This document shows positions 10,181 to 27,868 of a DNA stretch of 64,000 nt, piece after piece. Under the pieces are notes generated by a model, which saw nothing but the letters and a program-made list of their open reading frames with translations, did not search any database and had not been told where the DNA came from. Each line of letters starts with the position of its first letter. The stretch's first letter is position 1. The DNA comes from a virus, in IMG/VR virus record IMGVR_UViG_3300017963_000254, positions 10,516 to 74,515 of that record. One strand, written 5' to 3'. Position numbers and translations under genes: made by a program.

Positions 10181-10701
10181 TGCCGATTCTCACTCTGGAC
10201 CTGGGCACGCACACCGGCTGGTCCCTGCGGGATACGAGGGGCAACGTCATAAGCGGCCGGCAGTCGTTCGAGCTGACCCGGTGGGAGAGCCACGGGATGC
10301 GCCAGCTCCGGTTCCGCAAGTGGATCCGTGAGATGCTCGACGAATTCCTTCTGGCGGATGACCCGGAGCAGGCGTTCGTGGCCTACGAGCGGCCTATCAT
10401 CGCGGGCCGGGGGAAGAACCAGCACAGGTCGGGCAACGAGGTCGGGAAGCTCCTGGTCGGGACGCTGCTTCCCGAGCTGGAGGAGCGCGAACTGCTCCAC
10501 GCGGCGCCGACGCCGGTTCAGGTGAAGAAGCACGCGACTGGCAAGGGAAACGCGAACAAGCACGCGATGGTCGAAGCGGCCGAGAACCGCTGGGAGCACT
10601 ACTCGCGGCCGAAGGACTACAGCGAGAAGAATGGGGACGACGAGGCGGATGCGCTCGGCATCATGGGATGGGCGATCGACGAGGTTGGGGCGTCTGGGTA
10701 G
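10177..10701 (+). CDS. RuvC-like resolvase
   Basis: LTLDLGTHTGW, AYE, VKKHATGKGNANK and DEADAL motifs. Confidence 0.82.
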   Translation: MMPILTLDLGTHTGWSLRDTRGNVISGRQSFELTRWESHGMRQLRFRKWIREMLDEFLLADDPEQAFVAYERPIIAGRGKNQHRSGNEVGKLLVGTLLPELEERELLHAAPTPVQVKKHATGKGNANKHAMVEAAENRWEHYSRPKDYSEKNGDDEADALGIMGWAIDEVGASG

Positions 10702-16321: not shown

Positions 16322-17205
16322 ACGATCTTGCCGAGGCCGCGATCGACGCGCATCTCTTCTTCTCGCGCTACCCCCTCGTGGAAGGGGCCGGCGAGATCGA
16401 GAAGCTGGCTGTGAAGGCCATCGCCGGTGACATGGCGGCGCTCGGCGATCTGGTGACGAAGCTCGATCGGAACCTCAAGGCTACGGCTCGCGCGCGCGGC
16501 AGAGGTGCGCTCTCGAAGGAGGATGTCGAGGACGTCGTGCAGGACGCCTTGACCAAGCTGCTTGAGCCCGGCCAGCTGGCCAAGTTCAAGGACGACCCAG
16601 GCGGCATCGTGCCATGGCTCCATCGGTCCGTGATGAACGCGACGTTCAACCTGCGGAAGCAGAAGGCGCGTCGCGGTACAGTCGGCCTATCCGTGGATGT
16701 TCCGACCGGCGGCCTGGGCGCCGTCTCCGGCCTCACGCGGAAGAAGATGTCCGCCACCAAGCGCGAGATCGTGCACGGGGCCGTCAAGCGGGCGCTCGCT
16801 GGTCATTTCACCAAGCCCGAGCAGGAGTTCATCCTCAAGCTGTTCGGCAGCGATGACGATTTCAAGATGCCAACCAAGGGCGATGCCGAAGGCGCGGCCA
16901 AGGAGATCGGCCGCAAGGGAACGAAGCGCGCGATCGAGGCGTGGTCCTCGCGCGTGAAGAAGAAGTTCCTGAAGGCGCTCTGCACCGATCGCCAGCTCTG
17001 CGACCTGCTGCCATCCCACAGGGGCGTCACAGGCCGTGTCCGCAAGAACGTCAAATACGCCTGCCGTGGCGTGGCCGGTTCATGTGTCGAGTCCGAGATC
17101 ATCGAGTTCGCGTCAGCGCTGACCGAGGACAACGGAAAACTAGATGAGGGCGCGGCTTGCGAGCTGGTGCTATCCTGGTTGAAGGAGGTGCTGGCCGAGG
17201 AATGA
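16318..17205 (+). CDS. ECF/sigma-70 region-2-like protein
   Basis: 'EDVEDVVQDALTKL...WLHRSVMNATFNLRKQK' matches the ECF sigma region 2 pattern. Confidence 0.6.
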   Translation: MNDLAEAAIDAHLFFSRYPLVEGAGEIEKLAVKAIAGDMAALGDLVTKLDRNLKATARARGRGALSKEDVEDVVQDALTKLLEPGQLAKFKDDPGGIVPWLHRSVMNATFNLRKQKARRGTVGLSVDVPTGGLGAVSGLTRKKMSATKREIVHGAVKRALAGHFTKPEQEFILKLFGSDDDFKMPTKGDAEGAAKEIGRKGTKRAIEAWSSRVKKKFLKALCTDRQLCDLLPSHRGVTGRVRKNVKYACRGVAGSCVESEIIEFASALTEDNGKLDEGAACELVLSWLKEVLAEE

Positions 17206-17870
17206 GCAACGGGACCGGCAACAACCCGAAGCGCTCTCTGGTGACACCGACGCAGGCGGCTGCGATCGGCCGGAACAAGCGTCGCTACCGGTCGCTGATC
17301 GATAAGAGGCGGCTCGCCGTATGGGAGGCTCGTCTCGCCGGCGTGCCGGTCTATCAGCTGGCCAAGGACCACGGCGTCTCCACGAAGACGATCGAGCGGG
17401 ACATCAGGTGGTGGGAGGATCGGCTCGGCTACCGAGCTGACGAGCTGAAGGATCCGAAGAACGCCGCGATCGATGTCGGCATGACGATGGCCAAGCTCCA
17501 GAAGGTGGCCGAGGATGCCTACGTCGAGTTCCTGGGGGCCGACAACGGTCACCTCAAGGCCAAGTTCCTGATGGTGATGAACAACGCGCTCGTCAACAGG
17601 CACAAGATCGGCGCCGACGCCGGGTTCTTGCCGAAGGTCGGTCAGGACCACGAGTGGCGAGAAGAGGTCAAGGTCACCTTCACTCAGCGGTTCGGCAAGG
17701 AGTCCCCGCAGGCCGTGTTCGATGACGACAAGAGCCGGCGCCGTGTTCTCGAGGCGACCGAGGCGATTCTCAAGGAGAGCGCCAGGTCGGGTGTTCCAGT
17801 CAAGGCCCTTCTCGAGCAGGCGTCGGCCAAGCCGGTGGAAGGCCAAGTTGTCGACACTGACGATGTGTAA
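17202..17870 (+). CDS. Probable terminase small subunit (HTH)
   Basis: HTH 'QLAKDHGVSTKTIERDI'; directly upstream of and coupled to the large terminase. Confidence 0.6.
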   Translation: MSNGTGNNPKRSLVTPTQAAAIGRNKRRYRSLIDKRRLAVWEARLAGVPVYQLAKDHGVSTKTIERDIRWWEDRLGYRADELKDPKNAAIDVGMTMAKLQKVAEDAYVEFLGADNGHLKAKFLMVMNNALVNRHKIGADAGFLPKVGQDHEWREEVKVTFTQRFGKESPQAVFDDDKSRRRVLEATEAILKESARSGVPVKALLEQASAKPVEGQVVDTDDV

Positions 17871-19393
17871 TGATCAGCTACGAGCACGGGCGTTGGCGGT
17901 CGGTTCGGACTAATACCGAGAAGCTGAACGCCGCGCTTGAAGCCGTGCGTCAGCTGACGGTCGATGAGAGGGCCGCGTTAGGGATCGTCCTCGGCGAGTT
18001 CGAGGACACCGGCACCAGCCAGACAGCCGACGAAGCGGCCGAGTTCGAGTGGGAGGAGACGCCTCTCCCGATCGAGGAGTGGATCCTGTCTGAGTACCAC
18101 GTCGGCGAGACCGGTAAGGATCTCTACCCGATCCTACGCAAGGACATCTGCGAGCTGTTCCACGCGGGCGCACTCAAGAAGGGTGGCTACGCGGAGGCCG
18201 TGCTCTGCTTGCACCCAGACACGCGGGTGCCTCTTCTCGATGGGACTGCTCCTACGATCGCCGAGCTGGCAGAGCGCTGGCAGCGTGACTCGGTGCCGTT
18301 CTGGGTCTACTCCTACGTCAACGGAGAGCTGGGGCGGGCGCAGGCGGTCCAGCCCCGGCAGACCGGCGTGGACGACTACTACCAGGTAACCCTGGACGAC
18401 GGTTCGACGTTCATCGGGAACTCCAGACACCAGATGCTCCGGCGCACTGGCGAGAAGGTGATGATCCGGGACATGCGGCCCGGCGATTCGCTGATGCCAT
18501 TCGAGGTGAAGTTCTCATCGACGAGCGCCGGCGACGATTTGGACGGCTACGAGAAAACTCAGCTTCTGTCAGGAGAGTGGGCTTACACGCACCGACTCGT
18601 TGCCAAGGCATTGTGCGAGCAGGAAAGCGAGCGGCACAGTGTCGTTCACCATGAGGATCTGGACAAGCGCAACAACACACCAGAGAACCTCACGTGGATG
18701 AAGTGGCTCGATCACTTCAGGTTGCACCACCAGGAGCGGCGAGTAGACATCACGATTGATGCGATTCGCGCTACTGGTGCCGCGAGTCTACAGGAGGCGG
18801 CGGAGGCGCTTGAGTGTAGTTACTCACGCATTCGTTACGTGCTCCAGAAGAACGGCTACACGCAGACCGAGTTCTTCGGCAACCGGCGCGGCAGACGGCG
18901 CGGTAAAGACGACCTGACGATGGCTGCCGTGCGATTGGTGATCGAGGGTGGGGCGAGGACAGCCCGCGAAGCGGCCAAGCATCTTGATCGGGACCGCTCG
19001 ACGCTTCATCGGTTCCTGCGGGCACGCGGTACCACTTGGACGAAGCTGCTGCGCGGGCACGACAAGAAGCTCACGGTGGAGCGCGTGGTTGCTGCGATCC
19101 AGTCTGGTGCCGCCACTGTTACAGCGGCGGCGCACTCACTTGGTTGTTACAAGAGCACGATCTACAAGCTGCTCAACCGCGAGGGGCTTGAGTGGGCCGA
19201 ACTAGGCGGAGTGGTCGGCAATCACTTCGTCGTGAGTGTCGAGAAGATAGGAAGAGGTCCGGTCTACTGCTTGTCTGTTCCCGGCGCGGGGAACTTCGCC
19301 ATCAGCACTCAACACAGCGAGGAGGAAGAGGTCAGTCCCATCCATCGCTCTGGTGTTTTTTCGTCGAACACCGGAGCCATCGGATGGGGCTGA
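17870..19393 (+). CDS. terL: Terminase large subunit, 5' part (N-extein + intein + TGAIGWG), ending at an in-frame TGA
   Basis: After intein removal reads ...LYP...EAVL-TGAIGWG, a terminase Walker A lacking its Lys. Confidence 0.75.
   Translation: MISYEHGRWRSVRTNTEKLNAALEAVRQLTVDERAALGIVLGEFEDTGTSQTADEAAEFEWEETPLPIEEWILSEYHVGETGKDLYPILRKDICELFHAGALKKGGYAEAVLCLHPDTRVPLLDGTAPTIAELAERWQRDSVPFWVYSYVNGELGRAQAVQPRQTGVDDYYQVTLDDGSTFIGNSRHQMLRRTGEKVMIRDMRPGDSLMPFEVKFSSTSAGDDLDGYEKTQLLSGEWAYTHRLVAKALCEQESERHSVVHHEDLDKRNNTPENLTWMKWLDHFRLHHQERRVDITIDAIRATGAASLQEAAEALECSYSRIRYVLQKNGYTQTEFFGNRRGRRRGKDDLTMAAVRLVIEGGARTAREAAKHLDRDRSTLHRFLRARGTTWTKLLRGHDKKLTVERVVAAIQSGAATVTAAAHSLGCYKSTIYKLLNREGLEWAELGGVVGNHFVVSVEKIGRGPVYCLSVPGAGNFAISTQHSEEEEVSPIHRSGVFSSNTGAIGWG
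18206..19369 (+). mobile_element. Intein (388 aa) with HNH endonuclease and HTH repeats, in TerL
   Basis: Starts CLHPDTRVPLLDG; ends ...GVFSSN followed by Thr; internal 'YTHRLVA...VVHHEDLDKRNNTPENL' HNH motif. Confidence 0.85.
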
Positions 19394-19406
19394 CCTCGAA
19401 ATTCTC

Positions 19407-21077
19407 AAGGACTACTTCGCCACCTTCGCGACGATGCGTGTGCTCTACGAGCTGCTCTGTCTGAAGAACCCTCAGCACACGTTAGGGCTGGGCGCCGGCG
19501 AGCCCATTCACGTCGTCCCCATCTCTCGCACGGTCGCTCAGGCGAAGCGCGTCGTCTTCGGCGGCCTCTGCAAGAAGCTCAACCTCGCCGACTGGTTCCG
19601 TGGCAAGTTCGTCGAGACGATGGAGGAGGTCCGCTTCAAGGAGAAGGGCGTCTACATCGTCGGCGGCGCGTCACAGGATGCAAGCGCACTCGGGTTGAAC
19701 GTAATTTGTGCATTGGTTGATGAATCGAATTTCATGGGAGAAGGCAAAGTCGCTACAGGAAGCGCCAGCGGTGAGGCGTATGATAAAGCAACAATGATCT
19801 ACAACGCGCTCGCCCGGCGCGTGAAATCGCGCTACGAGCGACACGGAGTCTCCGGCCTGGTGTTCCTCATCTCGTCGAAGCGCTCGACGGAGGACTTCAC
19901 CGAGCGCCATCTGAAGCAGGCGATGAAGGACGACGACCCGACCGTCTTCGCCCGCGACTATGCGACATGGCACGTGCACCCCGAGCCGTTCGCGGACCAG
20001 AAGTGGCACAAGGTGATGGTGTCTCCGAAGAGCGGCAAGAGCAGGCTGCTCGAGGATGGCGAGGAAGTCGAGGAAGACGAGAACACGATCGTCTTCGAGT
20101 ATCCCGATGACTATCACGAGGAGTTCATCAACGACACGGACGGCGCGGTCCGCGACTTCGGTGGCATCGCGACCGACTTCGCCGGCAAGCTGTGGATCAC
20201 CAGGCGGCAGGCGATCGACGAGATGTTCGATCACGCCAGGCCGCAGTGGTTCGGTACCTCCGAGTGGAGGACCGACAGGATGCTGCGGTTCAACTGGAAG
20301 ATGTGCATGGGGGAGAACGTCGACAAGGAGCCGGTGCCGGCCTGTTGTCCTGGCTCGGTCCGCCACGTCCACATCGATCTCTCCACGAGCCAGTGCGCGA
20401 CCGGGTTCTGCATGGGGCATGTGGCCGGCTCGGTTCCGGTGACCCGGCGCGACCCGGAGACGGGCGAGCAGCGCCGCGAGGATGCGGTGGTGGTCCACAT
20501 CGACTGCATCCTGCGGATCGTGGCGCCAGACGGCGGCGATGTCGATCACGGCGAGGTGCGCAGCCTGGTCTACAAGCTGATGAAGGGCGGGGTCCCGATC
20601 CGGTCGGTCTCGATGGACCAGTACCTCGCCCCGTCCAACCTCCAGATGTTCAAACGCAAGGGGTTGCGCACCGAGGAGATCGGTGAGCGGCGCTTCAAGC
20701 TCAAGCCCTACATCGCGACCCGGCAGGCGCTCTACGAGGGCCGGGTGGTGGCTCCGGTCTCCGAGAACCTGGCGTCCGAGCTGAAGGTGCTCGAGCTGCA
20801 CCCGTCCGGCAAGAAGGTCATCGTCCCCGCGAAGCAGTCGAAGGATCTGGCGGACGCGCTGTGCGGCGTGGTCTACTACATCTCGGAGCACATGAGGGCC
20901 GGCGTCGTCCTCGCGCCGACTCTGGGAACGTCCGGGAGCGCACGGCCGGTCGGTCCTCAATGGAGTTCCGGCGGCCATGTCGACTGGGGCGACGATGACG
21001 ATTACGGTTACGATCCTCCGCTCACGTCCGATGGCTCTGGTGATGGGGGGTTCTCGTCGTGGATCATCCTCGGCTGA
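19407..21077 (+). CDS. terL: Terminase large subunit, 3' part (Walker A Lys onward, Walker B, nuclease domain); no own start codon at this point
   Basis: KDYFA...LYELLCLKNP, Walker B ALVDESNF, LISSKR, nuclease HVHIDLS and SKDLADALCG. Confidence 0.8.
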   Translation, partial: KDYFATFATMRVLYELLCLKNPQHTLGLGAGEPIHVVPISRTVAQAKRVVFGGLCKKLNLADWFRGKFVETMEEVRFKEKGVYIVGGASQDASALGLNVICALVDESNFMGEGKVATGSASGEAYDKATMIYNALARRVKSRYERHGVSGLVFLISSKRSTEDFTERHLKQAMKDDDPTVFARDYATWHVHPEPFADQKWHKVMVSPKSGKSRLLEDGEEVEEDENTIVFEYPDDYHEEFINDTDGAVRDFGGIATDFAGKLWITRRQAIDEMFDHARPQWFGTSEWRTDRMLRFNWKMCMGENVDKEPVPACCPGSVRHVHIDLSTSQCATGFCMGHVAGSVPVTRRDPETGEQRREDAVVVHIDCILRIVAPDGGDVDHGEVRSLVYKLMKGGVPIRSVSMDQYLAPSNLQMFKRKGLRTEEIGERRFKLKPYIATRQALYEGRVVAPVSENLASELKVLELHPSGKKVIVPAKQSKDLADALCGVVYYISEHMRAGVVLAPTLGTSGSARPVGPQWSSGGHVDWGDDDDYGYDPPLTSDGSGDGGFSSWIILG

Positions 21078-21349: not shown

Positions 21350-21600
21350 GATGCCCTCGCTGCACGCACCACGGCTCGAAGGTCACCAAGACTACGCGTC
21401 CAATCGACGAGGGCTCGTTCGAGTTCGGTAACCTGAAGAAGCGCGAGCGCAAGTGTGGTGAGTGCAACGGCCGGTTCTTCACCTACGAGATCCACGAGGA
21501 TGCGTTTCGTAGAATGCTCACCCTTACCGAGGGTAAACCTGTCCGCCGGTCGCTCCGAACGGGGGGCAAGAAGCCGAGCTATCGAGCGTCGCACCTGTAG
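21346..21600 (+). CDS. NrdR-like Zn-ribbon protein lacking the ATP-cone
   Basis: MRCPRC...SKV...RERKCGECNGRFFTYE matches the NrdR N-terminal domain. Confidence 0.75.
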   Translation: MRCPRCTHHGSKVTKTTRPIDEGSFEFGNLKKRERKCGECNGRFFTYEIHEDAFRRMLTLTEGKPVRRSLRTGGKKPSYRASHL

Positions 21601-21607
21601 GGACAGC

Positions 21608-24600
21608 ATGAACTGGGCAACCCTGATCGAAGCCGACTGCGACAAGGACATCAAGATCAAGGATCCGACGCCGAAGCCGGAGGTCCAGGCGTCTCCGGTC
21701 ATCCTGGCGCGTGTCTCGACCACGATCATCAGCCGTCGCAAGGGTCTGGACGCCCAGCTGGCAAAGATGGCCAAGAAGAAGGCCAAGGCCGGCAAGGCGA
21801 AGACTGACAAGGCCAAGCACAAGGCCGACGTCGCGGTTGCGTGCGACGAGCTGCGCGTGAAGGCGCGCGCGGCCGACCTGGAGCTGGCGCTCAACAGGTG
21901 GAAGAACCTCGAGCCGATGGCCAAGAGCAACCTGGAGAAGTACCAAGGCCAGCGCGCGAACCTGGCTGCCAAGGGCAAGGATACCTCCAAGGTCGACGAG
22001 ACCATCGCGAGCATCGAGGCGTGGCTCCACTTCGGCGGCAAGCAGTCCGGCGCCGGCCAGGAGCACCTTGGCGGCTACAGCGATGAGAACTTCAAGCCCC
22101 CGCCGCTGGACAACGTCTCCTACGACTTCGGCAAGAACAAGGTGTTCGGGCCGAGCGGCGAGGAGTTCGATGTCGTCGCGCACGTCGCGGCCGAGAAGGA
22201 GAAGGCGGCGACCGCTACGGCAACGGCCGTGCTCGAGCCGCCGCCAGAGCCCAAGCCGGCGGAGCCGGTGGCGAAATCGGTGGATGCCCTGACGGCCTCC
22301 GAGCTGGCCGCGCTCAAGACCGATCTCAAGGCCGCCTACCTTGATGGTGTGAGCAAGGGAACCCTCAACCCGTTGCCGCACGATGTGTTCAAGAAGGCCG
22401 GTGTCGCTACACCCGTGGTCGGCTGGATGCTTCCGTCATCGAGCGAGACCGCCTCCAATCAGCTATGGACGTCCATCAAGGACGAGGTCGCGGTTTCCTC
22501 GCTCGACGATCTCGATATGGAGGAGGCGACGAAGCTGGTCTCGACGGCAATGAAGATCGTGTCGGACCAGATGAAGCTGGACGTGGCGGCCAGTAGCGCT
22601 TTCAAGAAGGTCACCGCCGTCAAGGCCATGCGGACCGCCAGCGCTGGCGTGATCGGCAAAGTTCTCGGCCTGAAGCCAGCGCTGGCGTTCATCGATCAGG
22701 CGCGTGACAAGTGGTACTCGGTACCGAAGCCGCTGCACGCCTACACGCCGAGCAAGCAATCTCAGATCAAAGGCATCGCGAAGTCGCTGGCGATTGAGTC
22801 CGCGTTTGCCGATCTCGGTCACGGGCCACTGGCGAGCAAGATAAAGGACAAGGCATCTACGGAGGGGCTGGGTCTATCGGCGGTAGCGGCTAGTGAGCTA
22901 TCCATGGACGCTGTGGTGTCCTACACCAACCTCGGCCTCGAGCAGCTCAACGCGGATCAGAAACAGGCCGTGATGGCGGTAGCCAAGAAGGCCGTCGACT
23001 CCGGCAAGAGCGTTCACGATGCGCTCAAGGCTGCCGGGATCGTCCACCTCAACAAGTCCGGGATGAAGCAGCTCCAGGACGAGGTGGGAGCGAAGCCTGA
23101 CGAGGCCGGCTTCCTGAAGGAGATCGAGGACGCGCTGGATTCGATCGCGCCGGGCGATGTGATTCCGCTCGAGCCGGCCGCCATCATCTCGCACATCGAC
23201 CAGTTCTGGGGGATGCCGTTCATCGGGTTGATGAGCAAGTACCACATCGAGAAGGTCAAGGGCACGAAGCTCGAGAACGACGTGAAGGCCAAGGCTCTCT
23301 ACGTCGTGCTCAAGCGGTGGAATCCCGAGAAGCTCATCCAGTTCGTTCACGACGAGTGGGACTTCGCGTTTGGCGATAAGGAGACCGCGCCTGGCGAGGG
23401 GTACGCGCTTCACTACGTGGATGGCGTCTTCACCATGAACACTCCATCCGTCGTCAAGCTCGGCGGATGGCCGGAGGCGATCAAAGAGATCACGAAGAAG
23501 CACCATCAGGAGTGGTTGGCCGAGAAAGCCTGGCCGCCGTGGAGCGCGAAGTGGGACAAGGATCACCCCACGGCTCCTACCCAGGATGACATCGACAACT
23601 TCGCCGATTGGGTCATCGCAGACCCGGAGTTCATACCGCCCGGTGTTATTCCCAGTGGTAGCGCACTGCACAACGCGGTGATCAAGTGGGCCGAGGATCA
23701 TCTTGGTGGTGACATGGGTCCCATCACGGATGCGATCCACAAGAAGTCTGAGACTGCGCCGATCGATATTAGCTCGGATGAGGAACTTGGCGCGGCCAGC
23801 ATCTCGATCAACGCGACGGAGACCGGCGACACCGAGCCGAAGCCGTTGCCGCAGAAGCCCGCACTACCGACCGTCTCGGGCAAGACGAAGGTCACGAAGA
23901 TCTCCAAGCCGCACCACCTGACCGGCGAGCAGAAGAAGCTCCTCGACGGATTGGTATCGGTGGCCATCGGCGGAGGTCTGCCGTTCACGAAGACCGGCGC
24001 GCTCAAGACCCAGCTGGGCTCAGTTGCCGGCGGCATCGCCAAGCAGTTCAAGGATGCCCATCTTGCGGCCGGCACCAAGCTCACGATCGGCAAGCCGCTC
24101 GTGCAGGCGGCGCTCGAGAAGGCGCTTGTCGGGATCAAGCACTCCGACTGGCTGGCATATGAGACCTACAAGGCGCTGTCGGCCGAGGTCATCTCGAGTG
24201 CGCTGACCAATTCTCAGCTCGCGGCCCTCGGAGATCTGGTCAACGAGTGCTTCACCCATGAGACCTATCAGAAGAAGGAGGGTGGCGGCTACTACGGCGG
24301 TCCGTTCAAGAACAAGAAGCAGAAGCAGCTCTTCAACGAGCTGATCTCCAAGTGCGAGGCGGTCGCGGCGGCCCCGACTGTGCCGGAGCAGGTGACAGGG
24401 CCGGCCGGAGCCGCCTACGGCGGGTCGATGTCCGTGGCCGAGCTGTTCGGCATGAGCAAGCCGGACTTGGACGAGTTCGCCAGCCTGGGGCTGGTCTCCG
24501 GGATGACGACGGCTCCTCCGATCGACAGCTCGTGGACCAGCTCGAGTAGTGATCTCGATGACAGCGGCGGTTCCCAGGGGAGCACCAAGAAGTTCCTGTC

Positions 24601-27600
24601 GGCCGCACTCGACGGCAAGAAGCACACCGGAGCTGGCGCCGCGCCGGCTCAGTTCCTCTTCAAGCACGACGGTTACCGAGCGCTCGGCGAGGCGGCTGCC
24701 AACCGGGTCCAGTCGCTTCTCGGTCTGGGAGGCGTCGGCACGAACAGCTACGTCATGTCGCGAGGCGGCAAGACCGGCTTCGTGCAGTTCTTCCGCGTCA
24801 CCAAGAACCTGCGGCACAAGTACGGTCACGGCGGTAAGCCGTGGCTGGGTCTTCCGGGGAGCGGCAAGGCCAACCCGCCCGAGGATGAGCGGAAGCGCCT
24901 GGCGCAGGGCCTTCAGCTGGCTCTCGTGGGCAACTGGCTGATCGACGACAAGGACGATCACGGCGGCAACTTCGTGTTCGACGAGTCCGATCAGATCACC
25001 GGGATCGACCACGGGCAGTGCTGCAAGTTCTTCGACTCGGGCGGTACTCTGCTCTCCCACTGGGACTGGTCTACCGGCAAGATCGCCAACAAGGATGGCA
25101 AGGCCACGCTCGAGGCCAACAAGGGGTGGCCGAAGCGGATGCTCTACGACTGGGCGGCCGGCGCTGACCTGGGTCCCGACCAGACCGCGATCCCTCTCCT
25201 GGCGCTGACAGACCCGGCGTTCGAGAAGATGATCCAGCGCGCCGAGGGCATTCCCGACGACGTCTACGACAAGATGTGGCGTCCATATGCCGAGGGAGCC
25301 GTGTCGGCCGCGCAACGGGACGGTGAGCAGCGGCTCTCGCGATACTCCCACAACCCGAAGGACAGGACGGTCGAAGGCTTCCTCGACGGGATGCAGAAGC
25401 GGCGCAAGTCGATCCGCAAGCAGGTCGCTGAGCTGTACTCGATGCTGGCGAAGAAGCGCGCACAGGCGCTCGCCGCGCACGGGGACACGAGACCCCTGGC
25501 CGAGATCGAGGCCGACGTCCGCGAGCAGCTCGGCTTAGACAAGTTCGCGGCCGGAGCGGTTACCGACAAGCAAGCGGCCAAGATGTCGCCGCTGGCCGAC
25601 GAGATCCAGGGCAGCGCTGACGCGCCCGGATGGGACGAGTCGAAGCTGCCCGAGTCATCTCACGTGCCGACGGCGGAGACGATCGCCGAGTGGGGCGTGA
25701 AGGGCTACGACATGGCCGTGGGCGGTGATGCCATCAAGGACGGTCGTGTCACGTTCCGACAGGTTGGCGAGATCCCGATGGTGGACTTCCGGCTGGACAA
25801 CCAGGCTCGCGCGGCGTTGCAGTCCCGTCTGCCCGGGTATTCGGGTGGGTCCACTGCGCCGCCCAAGCCGGCAGAGCCGTACTTGCCGCCGTTCACGCCT
25901 CCACCCAAGCCTACGTTCAACCAGTCGAACGAGTCTCTGGGAATGCAAGCGCTGACCGGTGGCGATCCAGGCGGCATGACCGGGCTCGCCAAGGGCGGCG
26001 TCACCGGAGATAACTGGACGAAGGTCGAGAAGTACGTCAGCAAGCACTACCTGCTGGATGGCGGGCCGGTCAAGCAGCCGAAGGGTTCGGTCTACTGGCT
26101 GAAGGGGCTGAAGGCCAGCCGCGATATGAAGCTGAGCGCGGATCCGGTAGTTGCGGCGGCCGGAGCGCACTACGAGAAGGAGCTGCTGAAGTTCGGCGAG
26201 GAGGGCGGCGAGGACGGGTTCGTGTTCAAGGCCAAGGACGATGTGCCAGAGGCCGATCGTACGATCACGCCGTTCAAGCTGACGCCGGAGCTGAAGAAGC
26301 TCCAAGACGCGGCGAAGGCAGATGTCGAGGCAGCGCACGCGAAGTCTGTCGAGGAGGCTAAGGCGGCGCACGAGAAGGAGGTGGAGGGGATCAAGGACAA
26401 GCACGCCGCAGCGATGGTCGTGTGGCAGGAGAAGTATGACGCCTGGAGCAGTGGGGGAGAGGCGGCAAGCGTCATCAAGGACGCCGTCAAGTACCCTCGG
26501 CCCCAGCAGCCGATCGGCGCGAAGCAGGAATCTGCCGGCGGTAAGGCTGGAGGAGGCTCGAAGTGGGACGGGTCGTGGGGCAACGCCTGGTACGCCGGAG
26601 GATCCGCTTACGAGATCGATCTGACGGATGCTGTAACACAGCTGGGCGGAGTCGCGACGGGCGAGAAGGATAGCCGTTTCGTGATTCGCTACAACACCGG
26701 AAAGACGGCGGACGTCGATCCTAAGTCGGTGTCACAGAGCACAGCCGGGCTGCCCACCTTCTCCGGTAAGACCACCATTCAGTTCCCAAAGGGGTCGAAC
26801 AAGGAGCAGATGCGCGCCATGATGAAGCGCGCGTTCGAGGTATTGGGCATCGACGCGCGGCCGGCCTCGGAAGAGGACCACGAGCTGAACTATGTGCGCA
26901 AGATGGCCTGGCTCCTCGGTATCGAGGGCGCGCACGGGACGGCGGTGAGCGGCGGCGCGGATGCTCGGTGGCACAAGGTCGAGCCGGCCGGTGGCACCCG
27001 CAGGGAGCGCATCGACTTCTGGATCGGCAAGCTCAAGAAGAAGGTCGGCTACGATCCGCGATATGCTCCGCAGCTGGCGAAGAACGGGACACCCAAGACG
27101 GTACCGGGCAGCCACGGCAAGGTGATGATGCAGGGAGACGGCAAGGTGCCGAATCCCGCGTGGCGTCCACAGGCCAAGCGTGTTGCGAATCGCGTCGCCC
27201 ACCGGCGGTTCGATTACACCGACGAGGCAATGATCCACCAGCTCTCGCTGGCCGATCCGCATGTTCCGGTGCAGCAGTCGAGCGACCGGCTCGGCAAGAT
27301 CCTCCAGGGCACGATGATGTCGTCGGCCGAGCGCACGGCGAACGGTATTCTGACGCCGTCCGGTGGTACAGAAGGCTCGGCCAGCGCCGACGCGGCGACT
27401 GGTGGAGGGCTTTCGGTGTTCCTCTACAACCGAAAGGTCAGTACTCACCACGTCATGGGCACAATGGGCAGAGTGGAGACGCGGATGGTGTTCCACCCGT
27501 CCATTCACCTGTACACGAACACCTACGCCGTGCCCGGCGATTCCTACGGCTCGAAGGTCTCCAAGAGCTGGACCGAAAAACGGCACAGGTCGCTGGACGA

Positions 27601-27868
27601 GGAGCGGCTGCTCACGGAGATTCGTCAGCACTCGTCTGGTTCTGCCGAGACGATGGCGATGGACCAGATCGACATCTTCCACCACGTCCTGTTCTACAAG
27701 CTGGCCGAGCCGAAGCGCTCGAATACGATCAAGAAGCTCAAGAAGGCCGGCATCGACACGATCGGTATGCCTCCCCGTCCGGTGGAAGAGGTCATCGTCT
27801 CCCAGTTCAGCGAGAGCGACATGAAGGCCGTGCTGAAGGCGAGCGCCAAGAGCAAGGAGTGGAGCTGA
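21608..27868 (+). CDS. Giant 2086-aa multidomain protein with HipA/PI3K-like kinase domain; probably virion-associated
   Basis: FLFK...EAAA..., WLIDDKDDHGGNF and GIDHG kinase-like motifs; start MNWATLIEA. Confidence 0.7.
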   Translation: MNWATLIEADCDKDIKIKDPTPKPEVQASPVILARVSTTIISRRKGLDAQLAKMAKKKAKAGKAKTDKAKHKADVAVACDELRVKARAADLELALNRWKNLEPMAKSNLEKYQGQRANLAAKGKDTSKVDETIASIEAWLHFGGKQSGAGQEHLGGYSDENFKPPPLDNVSYDFGKNKVFGPSGEEFDVVAHVAAEKEKAATATATAVLEPPPEPKPAEPVAKSVDALTASELAALKTDLKAAYLDGVSKGTLNPLPHDVFKKAGVATPVVGWMLPSSSETASNQLWTSIKDEVAVSSLDDLDMEEATKLVSTAMKIVSDQMKLDVAASSAFKKVTAVKAMRTASAGVIGKVLGLKPALAFIDQARDKWYSVPKPLHAYTPSKQSQIKGIAKSLAIESAFADLGHGPLASKIKDKASTEGLGLSAVAASELSMDAVVSYTNLGLEQLNADQKQAVMAVAKKAVDSGKSVHDALKAAGIVHLNKSGMKQLQDEVGAKPDEAGFLKEIEDALDSIAPGDVIPLEPAAIISHIDQFWGMPFIGLMSKYHIEKVKGTKLENDVKAKALYVVLKRWNPEKLIQFVHDEWDFAFGDKETAPGEGYALHYVDGVFTMNTPSVVKLGGWPEAIKEITKKHHQEWLAEKAWPPWSAKWDKDHPTAPTQDDIDNFADWVIADPEFIPPGVIPSGSALHNAVIKWAEDHLGGDMGPITDAIHKKSETAPIDISSDEELGAASISINATETGDTEPKPLPQKPALPTVSGKTKVTKISKPHHLTGEQKKLLDGLVSVAIGGGLPFTKTGALKTQLGSVAGGIAKQFKDAHLAAGTKLTIGKPLVQAALEKALVGIKHSDWLAYETYKALSAEVISSALTNSQLAALGDLVNECFTHETYQKKEGGGYYGGPFKNKKQKQLFNELISKCEAVAAAPTVPEQVTGPAGAAYGGSMSVAELFGMSKPDLDEFASLGLVSGMTTAPPIDSSWTSSSSDLDDSGGSQGSTKKFLSAALDGKKHTGAGAAPAQFLFKHDGYRALGEAAANRVQSLLGLGGVGTNSYVMSRGGKTGFVQFFRVTKNLRHKYGHGGKPWLGLPGSGKANPPEDERKRLAQGLQLALVGNWLIDDKDDHGGNFVFDESDQITGIDHGQCCKFFDSGGTLLSHWDWSTGKIANKDGKATLEANKGWPKRMLYDWAAGADLGPDQTAIPLLALTDPAFEKMIQRAEGIPDDVYDKMWRPYAEGAVSAAQRDGEQRLSRYSHNPKDRTVEGFLDGMQKRRKSIRKQVAELYSMLAKKRAQALAAHGDTRPLAEIEADVREQLGLDKFAAGAVTDKQAAKMSPLADEIQGSADAPGWDESKLPESSHVPTAETIAEWGVKGYDMAVGGDAIKDGRVTFRQVGEIPMVDFRLDNQARAALQSRLPGYSGGSTAPPKPAEPYLPPFTPPPKPTFNQSNESLGMQALTGGDPGGMTGLAKGGVTGDNWTKVEKYVSKHYLLDGGPVKQPKGSVYWLKGLKASRDMKLSADPVVAAAGAHYEKELLKFGEEGGEDGFVFKAKDDVPEADRTITPFKLTPELKKLQDAAKADVEAAHAKSVEEAKAAHEKEVEGIKDKHAAAMVVWQEKYDAWSSGGEAASVIKDAVKYPRPQQPIGAKQESAGGKAGGGSKWDGSWGNAWYAGGSAYEIDLTDAVTQLGGVATGEKDSRFVIRYNTGKTADVDPKSVSQSTAGLPTFSGKTTIQFPKGSNKEQMRAMMKRAFEVLGIDARPASEEDHELNYVRKMAWLLGIEGAHGTAVSGGADARWHKVEPAGGTRRERIDFWIGKLKKKVGYDPRYAPQLAKNGTPKTVPGSHGKVMMQGDGKVPNPAWRPQAKRVANRVAHRRFDYTDEAMIHQLSLADPHVPVQQSSDRLGKILQGTMMSSAERTANGILTPSGGTEGSASADAATGGGLSVFLYNRKVSTHHVMGTMGRVETRMVFHPSIHLYTNTYAVPGDSYGSKVSKSWTEKRHRSLDEERLLTEIRQHSSGSAETMAMDQIDIFHHVLFYKLAEPKRSNTIKKLKKAGIDTIGMPPRPVEEVIVSQFSESDMKAVLKASAKSKEWS

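Follow-up and report, generated by a model that had tools for sequence, protein, structure and literature searches.

A stop-led gap beside an HNH intein interrupts the Walker A motif of a phage large terminase gene

How does a phage make its large terminase (TerL) when the reading frame of terL is broken inside the Walker A motif? The question is raised by a 64,000-nucleotide (nt) stretch of viral DNA, hereafter the window, which spans positions 10,516 to 74,515 of IMG/VR record IMGVR_UViG_3300017963_000254. The record is linear, 74.5 kb long and about 65% G+C, and is estimated to be 27% complete. On the + strand of the window, to which all features below belong, positions 19370 to 19390 read ACC GGA GCC ATC GGA TGG GGC, the seven codons for TGAIGWG that make up the first half of the Walker A motif. 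Between this last Gly codon and the Lys codon of the motif, in AAG GAC TAC TTC, lie 16 nt, TGACCTCGAAATTCTC (19391 to 19406), which begin with a TGA stop codon. This TGA terminates the upstream open reading frame (ORF, 17870 to 19393), and the TerL frame downstream is shifted by +1. The edges of the gap are ambiguous by 1 nt (GGC/TGA..CTC/ or GG/CTGA..TCT/C, with slashes at the edges), and its 16-mer occurs a single time in the window.

The part of the gene downstream of the gap (19407 to 21077, from KDYFATF to the stop) contains the Walker A Lys, an ATPase core with Walker B, and a nuclease domain. In tblastn searches it matches 359 phage records annotated as terminase, with E-values down to 7e-60. 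Pfam and PHROGs contain no family that matches the TerL body, and phmmer against PDB sequences found nothing, so a fold search was needed to identify it. An AlphaFold model of the downstream part (predicted local distance difference test score, 75.6) matches the large terminases of HK97, Sf6, D6E and T4 with E-values from 2e-11 to 5e-9. The downstream part is a large terminase, with a Walker A/B ATPase and an RNase H-like nuclease fold. Megablast of the region against GenBank phages returned no match.

What does an unbroken version of this gene look like? Two IMG/VR relatives (L005 and L006), 92% identical in amino acid (aa) sequence, encode TerL as one 677-aa ORF that lacks both the 16 nt and the intein described below. 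The relative is uninterrupted at the junction (..AVLTGAIGWGKDYF..), and TerL of L005 and L006 reads ..GGYAEAVLTGAIGWGKDYFAT.. across it. The first 112 residues of the window's upstream ORF (17870 to 18205, ending ..GGYAEAVL) are collinear with the first 112 of L005 TerL. GWGK is unbroken in these two and in 61 other relatives, and more distant TerLs (Vibrio PG28, Agrobacterium JP1) have GAIGxGKT at the same spacing to the YxLSC helix. One of the two, a complete 275-kb genome with terminal repeats, has a single terL. A first-pass annotation, made from the letters and a list of ORFs, had claimed that an insert of 16 nt with a leading stop splits the Walker A motif of TerL and that cutting it out restores the P-loop. 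Both claims hold: the window sequence, its ORFs and the relatives agree on the split, and taking out exactly 16 nt gives back the sequence and spacing of L005 and L006.

Is the gap present in the phage population itself? We searched the Logan assemblies of metagenome sequencing runs, which were made with a different assembler from that of the IMG/VR record. Two runs from two studies, one of sediment and one of seawater (X1 and X2), each yielded a 603-nt contig that covers 18958 to 19560 with 0 differences and 0 gaps. Such identical contigs in two runs of two studies mean that the insert is real and not an artefact of assembly. Each of the two runs also has one contig that is unbroken across the intein insertion site (18205/18206). 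No intein-less allele on this backbone was seen in the X1 and X2 assemblies, in which contigs drop rare variants, and no contig without the 16 nt was found in the run assemblies searched. Two further runs (X3 and X5) gave just short unrelated pieces.

What lies immediately upstream of the gap was missing from the first-pass annotation. The upstream ORF consists of the 112-aa N-extein, a 388-aa intein (18206 to 19369; CLHPDTRV....GVFSSN) and only seven C-extein codons, after which the stop follows. Leu and Thr flank the intein (..AVL/TGAIGWGK), whose end is 21 nt upstream of the gap. Pfam, PHROGs and homologues identify in it an HNH endonuclease and several helix-turn-helix (HTH) modules. The Pfam Intein_splicing family matches ORF residues 122 to 477 with an E-value of 5.8e-5, below the gathering score. 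Pfam HNH_3 (6.8e-4) locates the nuclease core at ORF residues 239 to 278 (18584 to 18703), and there are matches to HTH families and to a PHROGs HNH endonuclease (2.9e-13). In an alignment of 20 homologues, the splicing residues C113, terminal N500 and T501 (+1) are invariant, as are the HNH residues H260, H261, N269, N273, H282 and H286; the penultimate intein residue is Ser, not His. The element is a class 1 intein with an HNH homing endonuclease. Homologous inteins occupy the same site (..L/TG..) in intact TerLs (for example P0005, P0108 and P0128). A tblastn search of GenBank phages with the intein ORF gave only weak matches to other inteins, and intein-profile scans of viral and genome contigs found other inteins for the most part and not one further broken terL.

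Is the window's gap unique? Relatives, in which the first-pass annotation had proposed to look for variable inserts at this site, have a gap of 5 nt and another of 8 nt there. The first is in a JGI metagenome contig, L010, which has exteins of the L005 type and a related HNH intein at the same site. Its junction reads ..TGG GGT TGAGC AAG GAT TAC, a TGA-led gap at the same Gly/Lys junction; the triplet before the resume codon is AGC, two of whose three bases match the take-off codon. L010 and L005 are 100% identical over 471 nt of C-extein and have 7 scattered differences in 1.9 kb upstream. Otherwise they differ only in the intein, in the 5-nt gap and at 2 silent positions of the 21 nt between these two. 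The two form a natural before-and-after pair, which indicates that intein, recoded 21 nt and gap arrived together. To judge from this comparison, the tract converted in L010 ends, on its 3' side, with the gap. In the window, the corresponding 21 nt between intein and gap have 5 synonymous differences from L005.

The 8-nt gap is in a 203-kb IMG/VR contig, L105, and accompanies an intein of another kind. This unrelated LAGLIDADG intein sits one codon further downstream (..LTG/C...VHN/STRWG). The junction reads GGT TGAATGGA AAG GAC: the gap contains a stop, the take-off codon would be Gly GGT and the landing codon Gly GGA, which immediately precedes the resume codon.

Many more alleles break at the same point. 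A protein search with the window's upstream ORF, over NCBI, JGI, ENA and Logan assemblies, found 19 further upstream ORFs with 38-73% identity. All of them, 20 with the window's, end exactly at ..SSNTG[AS][IT][GR]WG. The gaps of about 20 other broken alleles (P0042 to P0063 and others) were deduced from overlapping ORF translations, not from DNA. Partner downstream ORFs on contigs of the same length start with MGLGKDYF, VGLNGKDYF or MGLSKDYF, which would correspond to gaps of TAGGN, T[AG]A-AAY-GGN and T[AG]AGY. These are stop-led gaps of 5 and 8 nt, two of which would offer a GGN landing triplet (P0079 and P0156). Every downstream half that is available is full-length and keeps the invariant TerL residues.

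How closely does the gap follow the intein? About 24 of some 36 alleles with an intein at the window's site are broken. The gap is found in none of the 61 full-length relatives that have no intein there. The 12 intact alleles that do carry one are P0004, P0005, P0064, P0065, P0108, P0128, P0192, P0195, P0197, P0219, P0239 and L014. The first-pass annotation had reasoned that the window would be a defective variant if its relatives all lacked the insert; this is true of the intein-less relatives alone, and most of the intein-bearing ones are broken at the junction. The 15 interrupted alleles are dispersed over a tree of 81 C-exteins and require 13 state changes, as expected for a mobile cassette. 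The gap is linked to inteins, and the same junction is interrupted in diverged lineages. Intein and gap appear, from their joint distribution, to form one mobile cassette. The annotation's suggestion that the insert is the scar of a larger element was therefore right in part: it would be the 3' edge of an intein homing cassette.

Pattern searches added little to this set. A scan of viral contigs for exact flanks with a variable gap gave no matches, and a degenerate version of it found only gap-free relatives there; it was the degenerate pattern in metagenome contigs that found L010. A further pattern scan of viral contigs recovered only the records of the window and of L105 together with two spurious matches. 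A search of 50% representatives returned mostly other inteins and few added junctions.

Not all intein alleles break in the same way. Some are broken elsewhere in the P-loop stretch, after TGA, TGAI or TGSIG (among the proteins P0046, P0047, P0103, P0191, P0292 and P0060), so that a gap need not lie at the Gly/Lys junction. Some run on in another frame, and one apparently has a 5-nt insert that is not stop-led.

The intein itself has moved recently. Over its first 240 nt (18230 to 18469) the intein of the window has about 100% identity to that of L010, against about 85% for the exteins, which points to recent movement of the intein between the two lineages. The endonuclease region is only about 50% identical to that of L010 and differs in length. 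An intein with so similar a start and so different an endonuclease region is a mosaic, made by recombination within the intein. The contigs of both runs break at 18958 to 18969 and at 19560 to 19644, with about two-thirds of the flanking depth between these breaks. In X2, the loose ends found at 19241 and 19308 agree with the intein variant of L010. The samples probably contain two variants of the 3' half of the intein side by side.

How, then, could TerL be made from the window allele? The best reading, to which we give an even chance, is that the ribosome crosses the gap by translational bypassing. According to this model, a cassette consisting of the HNH intein, 21 recoded nt of P-loop and, at its 3' edge, the 16-nt gap would have homed into the Walker A coding region of the single terL. 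The ribosome would translate the N-extein, the intein and TGAIGWG, and would then stall with peptidyl-tRNA-Gly on GGC and UGA, in the context UGA C, in the A site. The tRNA would unpair from the message, the ribosome would cross the 16 nt, and translation would resume at AAG to give a contiguous ..GAIGWGKDYF.. P-loop. The intein would afterwards splice itself out. The benefit to the element may be, and here we speculate by analogy with T4 MobA and gene 60, that the invaded allele is shielded from the element's own endonuclease. Bypassing keeps the invariant GxxxxGK whatever the length of the gap, be it 5, 8 or 16 nt, and so fits all alleles.

Several features of the locus bear on this model. 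The stop directly follows the candidate take-off codon (GGC at 19388 to 19390, TGA at 19391 to 19393), and a G-rich UGGGG abuts that codon. The nascent peptide, RSGVFSSNTGAIGWG, is conserved, but as intein block G and P-loop it is under constraint in any case. In this phage TGA is an ordinary stop codon, closing 14 of the 22 long ORFs checked in the window. An alternative genetic code is ruled out, since the gap lengths are not multiples of three and TGA closes most genes. No tRNA or suppressor tRNA was found in the window. We looked by hand for other pairs of take-off and landing codons: GCC...GCC would remove part of the P-loop, and GGA...GGA would resume in the wrong frame.

The comparison with relatives and with the corresponding junction of Streptomyces phage phiHau3 gives the first-pass proposal of an unusual bypass its best support; that junction is bypassed in phiHau3 constructs. 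A number of observations weigh against bypassing of the window allele. As the annotation had pointed out, the gap has no matching landing codon: the triplet before the resume codon AAG is CTC, which has only its third base in common with GGC, and no GGN occurs in the productive frame of the gap. In T4 gene 60 and phiHau3, the take-off and landing codons match or are synonymous. Folding predicts no significant RNA structure around the gap (z +0.7; the L010 and L105 alleles give -3.4 and -0.8), and no Shine-Dalgarno (SD)-like element occurs inside it. The contig that holds the gap has a depth of 4.8 in both runs, against 6 to 8 on its flanks, and a second, unseen variant of the stretch may exist. 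The ratio of nonsynonymous to synonymous substitution rates against L005, 0.19 for the N-extein and 0.09 for the downstream part of TerL, mostly reflects time before the insertion. Finally, the interrupted alleles are tips of the extein tree beside intact alleles, some of them nearly identical, a placement that also fits recent dead ends.

We infer both that the window allele is bypassed and how a ribosome might land there without a cognate triplet. The allele may rely on a bypass mechanism that the sequence does not reveal, or it may have decayed and lost its function. Its occurrence in two runs of two studies mildly favours function. We consider some productive recoding of the gap across the allele family likelier than bypassing of this particular allele.

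The alternative that survives best, which we nevertheless regard as unlikely, is that the allele is defective: the intein cassette, or repair at the endonuclease cut, would have left a frame-breaking scar, so that no TerL is made and the allele is brief or complemented by co-infecting phages. On this view, either the 16 nt descend by decay from a gap that could be bypassed, or none of these alleles works. Besides the missing landing triplet and structure, and the interrupted tips beside intact relatives, this explanation draws on the near identity of L010 to intact L005 outside the cassette, which makes that allele very young, and on the nature of the record, a metagenomic fragment 27% complete whose infectivity is not evidenced. 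Against it stand about 20 intein alleles that share the break after WG at identities down to 40-60%, their splicing and HNH residues being invariant throughout. A lethal lesion would not be co-inherited through such divergence. Nor does a dead allele explain why the gap occurs with two unrelated inteins, why every available downstream half is full-length with its invariant TerL residues, or why contigs from two runs of two studies hold no intein-less competitor on the same backbone.

Could TerL instead be made in two pieces? In a split gene, the N-extein with TGAIGWG, joined by splicing, and a C-terminal part made by re-initiation would assemble non-covalently, as do T4 gp39 and gp60 or the NrdA split by MobE. 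Gene splitting by insertion of homing endonucleases is documented (bioRxiv 10.1101/2022.08.31.505936). Four alleles (L010, P0079, P0156 and P0158) have an in-frame GTG/ATG or TTG that overlaps the stop (as in GTG GGG TTG AGC AAG), and this start/stop overlap is a layout typical of translational coupling. In the window, however, the equivalent ATG (GGA TGG) is in the wrong frame. No ATG, GTG or TTG lies in the C-terminal frame at 19354 to 19407; the sole start in that frame is a GTG at 19353, 38 nt upstream of the gap, which has no SD sequence. The protein would be divided between the Gly and Lys of the P-loop, conserved added tails are missing, and the N-terminal extensions would differ by lineage. 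We judge a split gene quite improbable.

A programmed +1 frameshift at GGC UGA C, resembling that of prfB with UGGGG just upstream, is very unlikely. Its product would read ..GAIGWGDLEILK at the junction, with DLEIL between the Walker A Gly and Lys. The stop context UGA C is weak, the G-rich SD-like run abuts the P-site codon, and tRNA-Gly could hold two of three pairs on GCU. The shift would nonetheless put 5 residues inside GxxxxGK, whose length is invariant in all 61 intact relatives. L010 and L105 would need a -1/+2 shift instead, inserting 2 or 3 residues. Frameshifting was argued against in the same way for phiHau3, in which a +1-frame stop in the gap did not lower recoding (PMC10732093).

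It is equally hard to believe that the 16 nt are removed from nucleic acid, whether as a mini-intron, by RNA editing or by DNA excision in a subpopulation. The depth of the gap contig, about two-thirds of the flanks in both runs, would suit excision. The 5- and 8-nt gaps of relatives are far below the size of any known intron or bulge-helix-bulge element, the gap has no flanking repeats, and neither a contig without the 16 nt nor a significant fold was found. No Rfam-type structure was seen at the gap, and none was sought. The micro-intron or DNA-excision switch that the first-pass annotation had considered thus finds no support. Its remaining suggestion, an artefact of sequencing or assembly, might be feared of any metagenomic contig and is refuted by the identical 603-nt contigs of two runs and two studies, made by another assembler, and by analogous gaps in many independent assemblies; we give it almost no credence.

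If bypassing is the correct reading, how general might it be? Tentatively, and with less conviction than we attach to bypassing of the window allele, we propose that P-loop terminase inteins are composite elements with an obligatory, selected stop-led gap, which would serve self-immunity, dependence of the host gene on the element, or both. The hosts' ribosomes would hop 5 to 16 nt, in the window allele even without re-pairing, and bypassing would be a recurrent companion of homing elements in phage terminases.

Efficient bypassing is known from just a handful of natural genes, namely T4 gene 60 with its homologues, those of a single yeast mitochondrion and, as a candidate, the terL of phiHau3. 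The break described here falls at the P-loop junction of phiHau3, in a gene that is essential and present once, and it affects a widespread clade of uncultured large phages. Four aspects are new: stop-led gaps of variable length, their strict link to P-loop inteins of two unrelated kinds, their spread over this clade, and an allele that has no cognate landing codon. If these alleles are bypassed, homing elements could in general alter a conserved DNA target without changing the protein. The alleles would also provide a natural series for studies of short-range hopping (5, 8 and 16 nt; cognate, near-cognate and non-cognate landing). Gene callers would split such terL genes systematically, and annotation pipelines and intein surveys would miss them. 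If they are not bypassed, the surprise would be a different one: intein homing would regularly kill terL, and the dead alleles would be common in nature all the same.

The surroundings of the gap contain other traces of mobile elements. In the Walker B region (19647 to 19826, ..ICALVDESNFMGEGK..), G or C ends 8 to 14 of the 20 codons per 60 nt, compared with 16 to 19 in the flanks, and the region is 97% identical to L005, compared with about 87% for the flanks. Other TerLs (P0006, P0093, P0097 and others) have an intein exactly there (LVDE/C...HN/SNF). The region looks like a shared conversion tract or the footprint of a second intein homing site. Inteins occupy at least three or four positions in the TerL P-loop of this family (before TG, after TG and after GK), as seen in L014, L110, L112, L117, L120, L118, L139 and L001; L014 holds two inteins seven codons apart. 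In the TerL of Rhodobacter phage RcMenchie (1046 aa), an insert after GGGK begins with Arg-Leu, not with Cys or Ser. In L105 (25 to 1878), the gene directly upstream of terL is also interrupted by an intein (..AKSG/CLLGETRI...VVHN/SEKAKFLD..); it is a homologue of the HTH-containing gene at 17157 to 17870 of the window. Directly downstream of the window's terL, where the portal gene is expected, lies an ORF of 2137 aa (21455 to 27868).

How does the locus compare with systems already described? As in prfB, the gene for RF2, the A site is occupied by the stop UGA C, closely preceded by a G-rich run that resembles an SD sequence. The prfB shift takes place on CUU U, a slippery site with good re-pairing, and no conserved motif spans it, whereas a shift in the window would disrupt the P-loop.

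The byp inserts of Magnusiomyces capitatus mitochondria set a precedent for landing on a non-cognate triplet such as CTC (PMC5009743), and this yeast mitochondrion is the only precedent. The byp inserts are 27-55 nt long and are not linked to inteins; mitochondrial ribosomes, whose wobble rules are relaxed, read them with an unused sense codon in the A site.

Inteins in the P-loop of phage large terminases have been described by Kelley et al. 2016 (PMC5050341) and, in a recent survey of actinophages, by Gosselin et al. (bioRxiv 10.1101/2025.01.02.630785). Like the window's, they are homing-endonuclease inteins in the Walker A motif of TerL, sporadic among close relatives, and an in-frame HNH domain within an intein is a known rare architecture (bioRxiv 10.1101/2025.01.02.630785). 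Neither paper contains the words 'frameshift' or 'bypass' or describes a coding gap beside an intein.

The closest parallel in position is phiHau3. Bypassing was proposed for inserts in its terL by Smith et al. 2013 (J Bacteriol 195:4924), and phiHau3 and two prophages are candidates for terL bypassing (PMC10732093). Its gene reads GGT TGG GGC TTACTCCGGT AAG GAC, in which a frame-breaking insert of 10 nt would be crossed from take-off codon GGC to landing codon GGT; a second insert in the same gene has a TCT/TCC pair. Antonov et al. 2023 found the junction peptide GWG/NDPLL by mass spectrometry of a UAA-containing construct in Escherichia coli (PMC10732093). Both phages thus have a Gly take-off at the same Walker A junction, GWG/KD, and an insert that has no counterpart in orthologues and whose removal restores the P-loop. 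Gap length varies around phiHau3 too, being 7 or 10 nt (PMC10732093). The gap of phiHau3 starts with a rare sense codon, UUA, proposed to sense a host tRNA; the window's starts with TGA, and TAG or TAA was deduced in relatives. [quoted passage not shown] The phiHau3 paper does not mention inteins (PMC10732093), to which the window's gap is tied. The two TerL families are only distantly related.

The closest parallel in kind is T4 gene 60. Its gap is much longer (50 nt) and comes with a take-off stem-loop, a mini-SD, a nascent-peptide signal and matched GGA codons, none of which was detected at the window's 16 nt; relatives have 5 to 8 nt. MobA is free-standing and targets a topoisomerase gene, whereas the window's endonuclease is inside an intein and targets terL. 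In both, a stop follows a Gly take-off codon and the gap belongs to an HNH-type homing element in a highly conserved coding stretch. The MobA element of T4 includes the gap, which is situated some 20 nt from where the endonuclease nicks and keeps MobA from cutting an allele that it has already invaded (Manning & Atkins, bioRxiv 10.1101/2022.08.31.505936). The window's gap likewise lies about 20 nt from the site of action of its element, and insertions at this one site are recent and repeated. As with MobA and gene 60, the gap is inherited with the endonuclease element and is missing from empty sites, as the pair of L005 and L010 illustrates.

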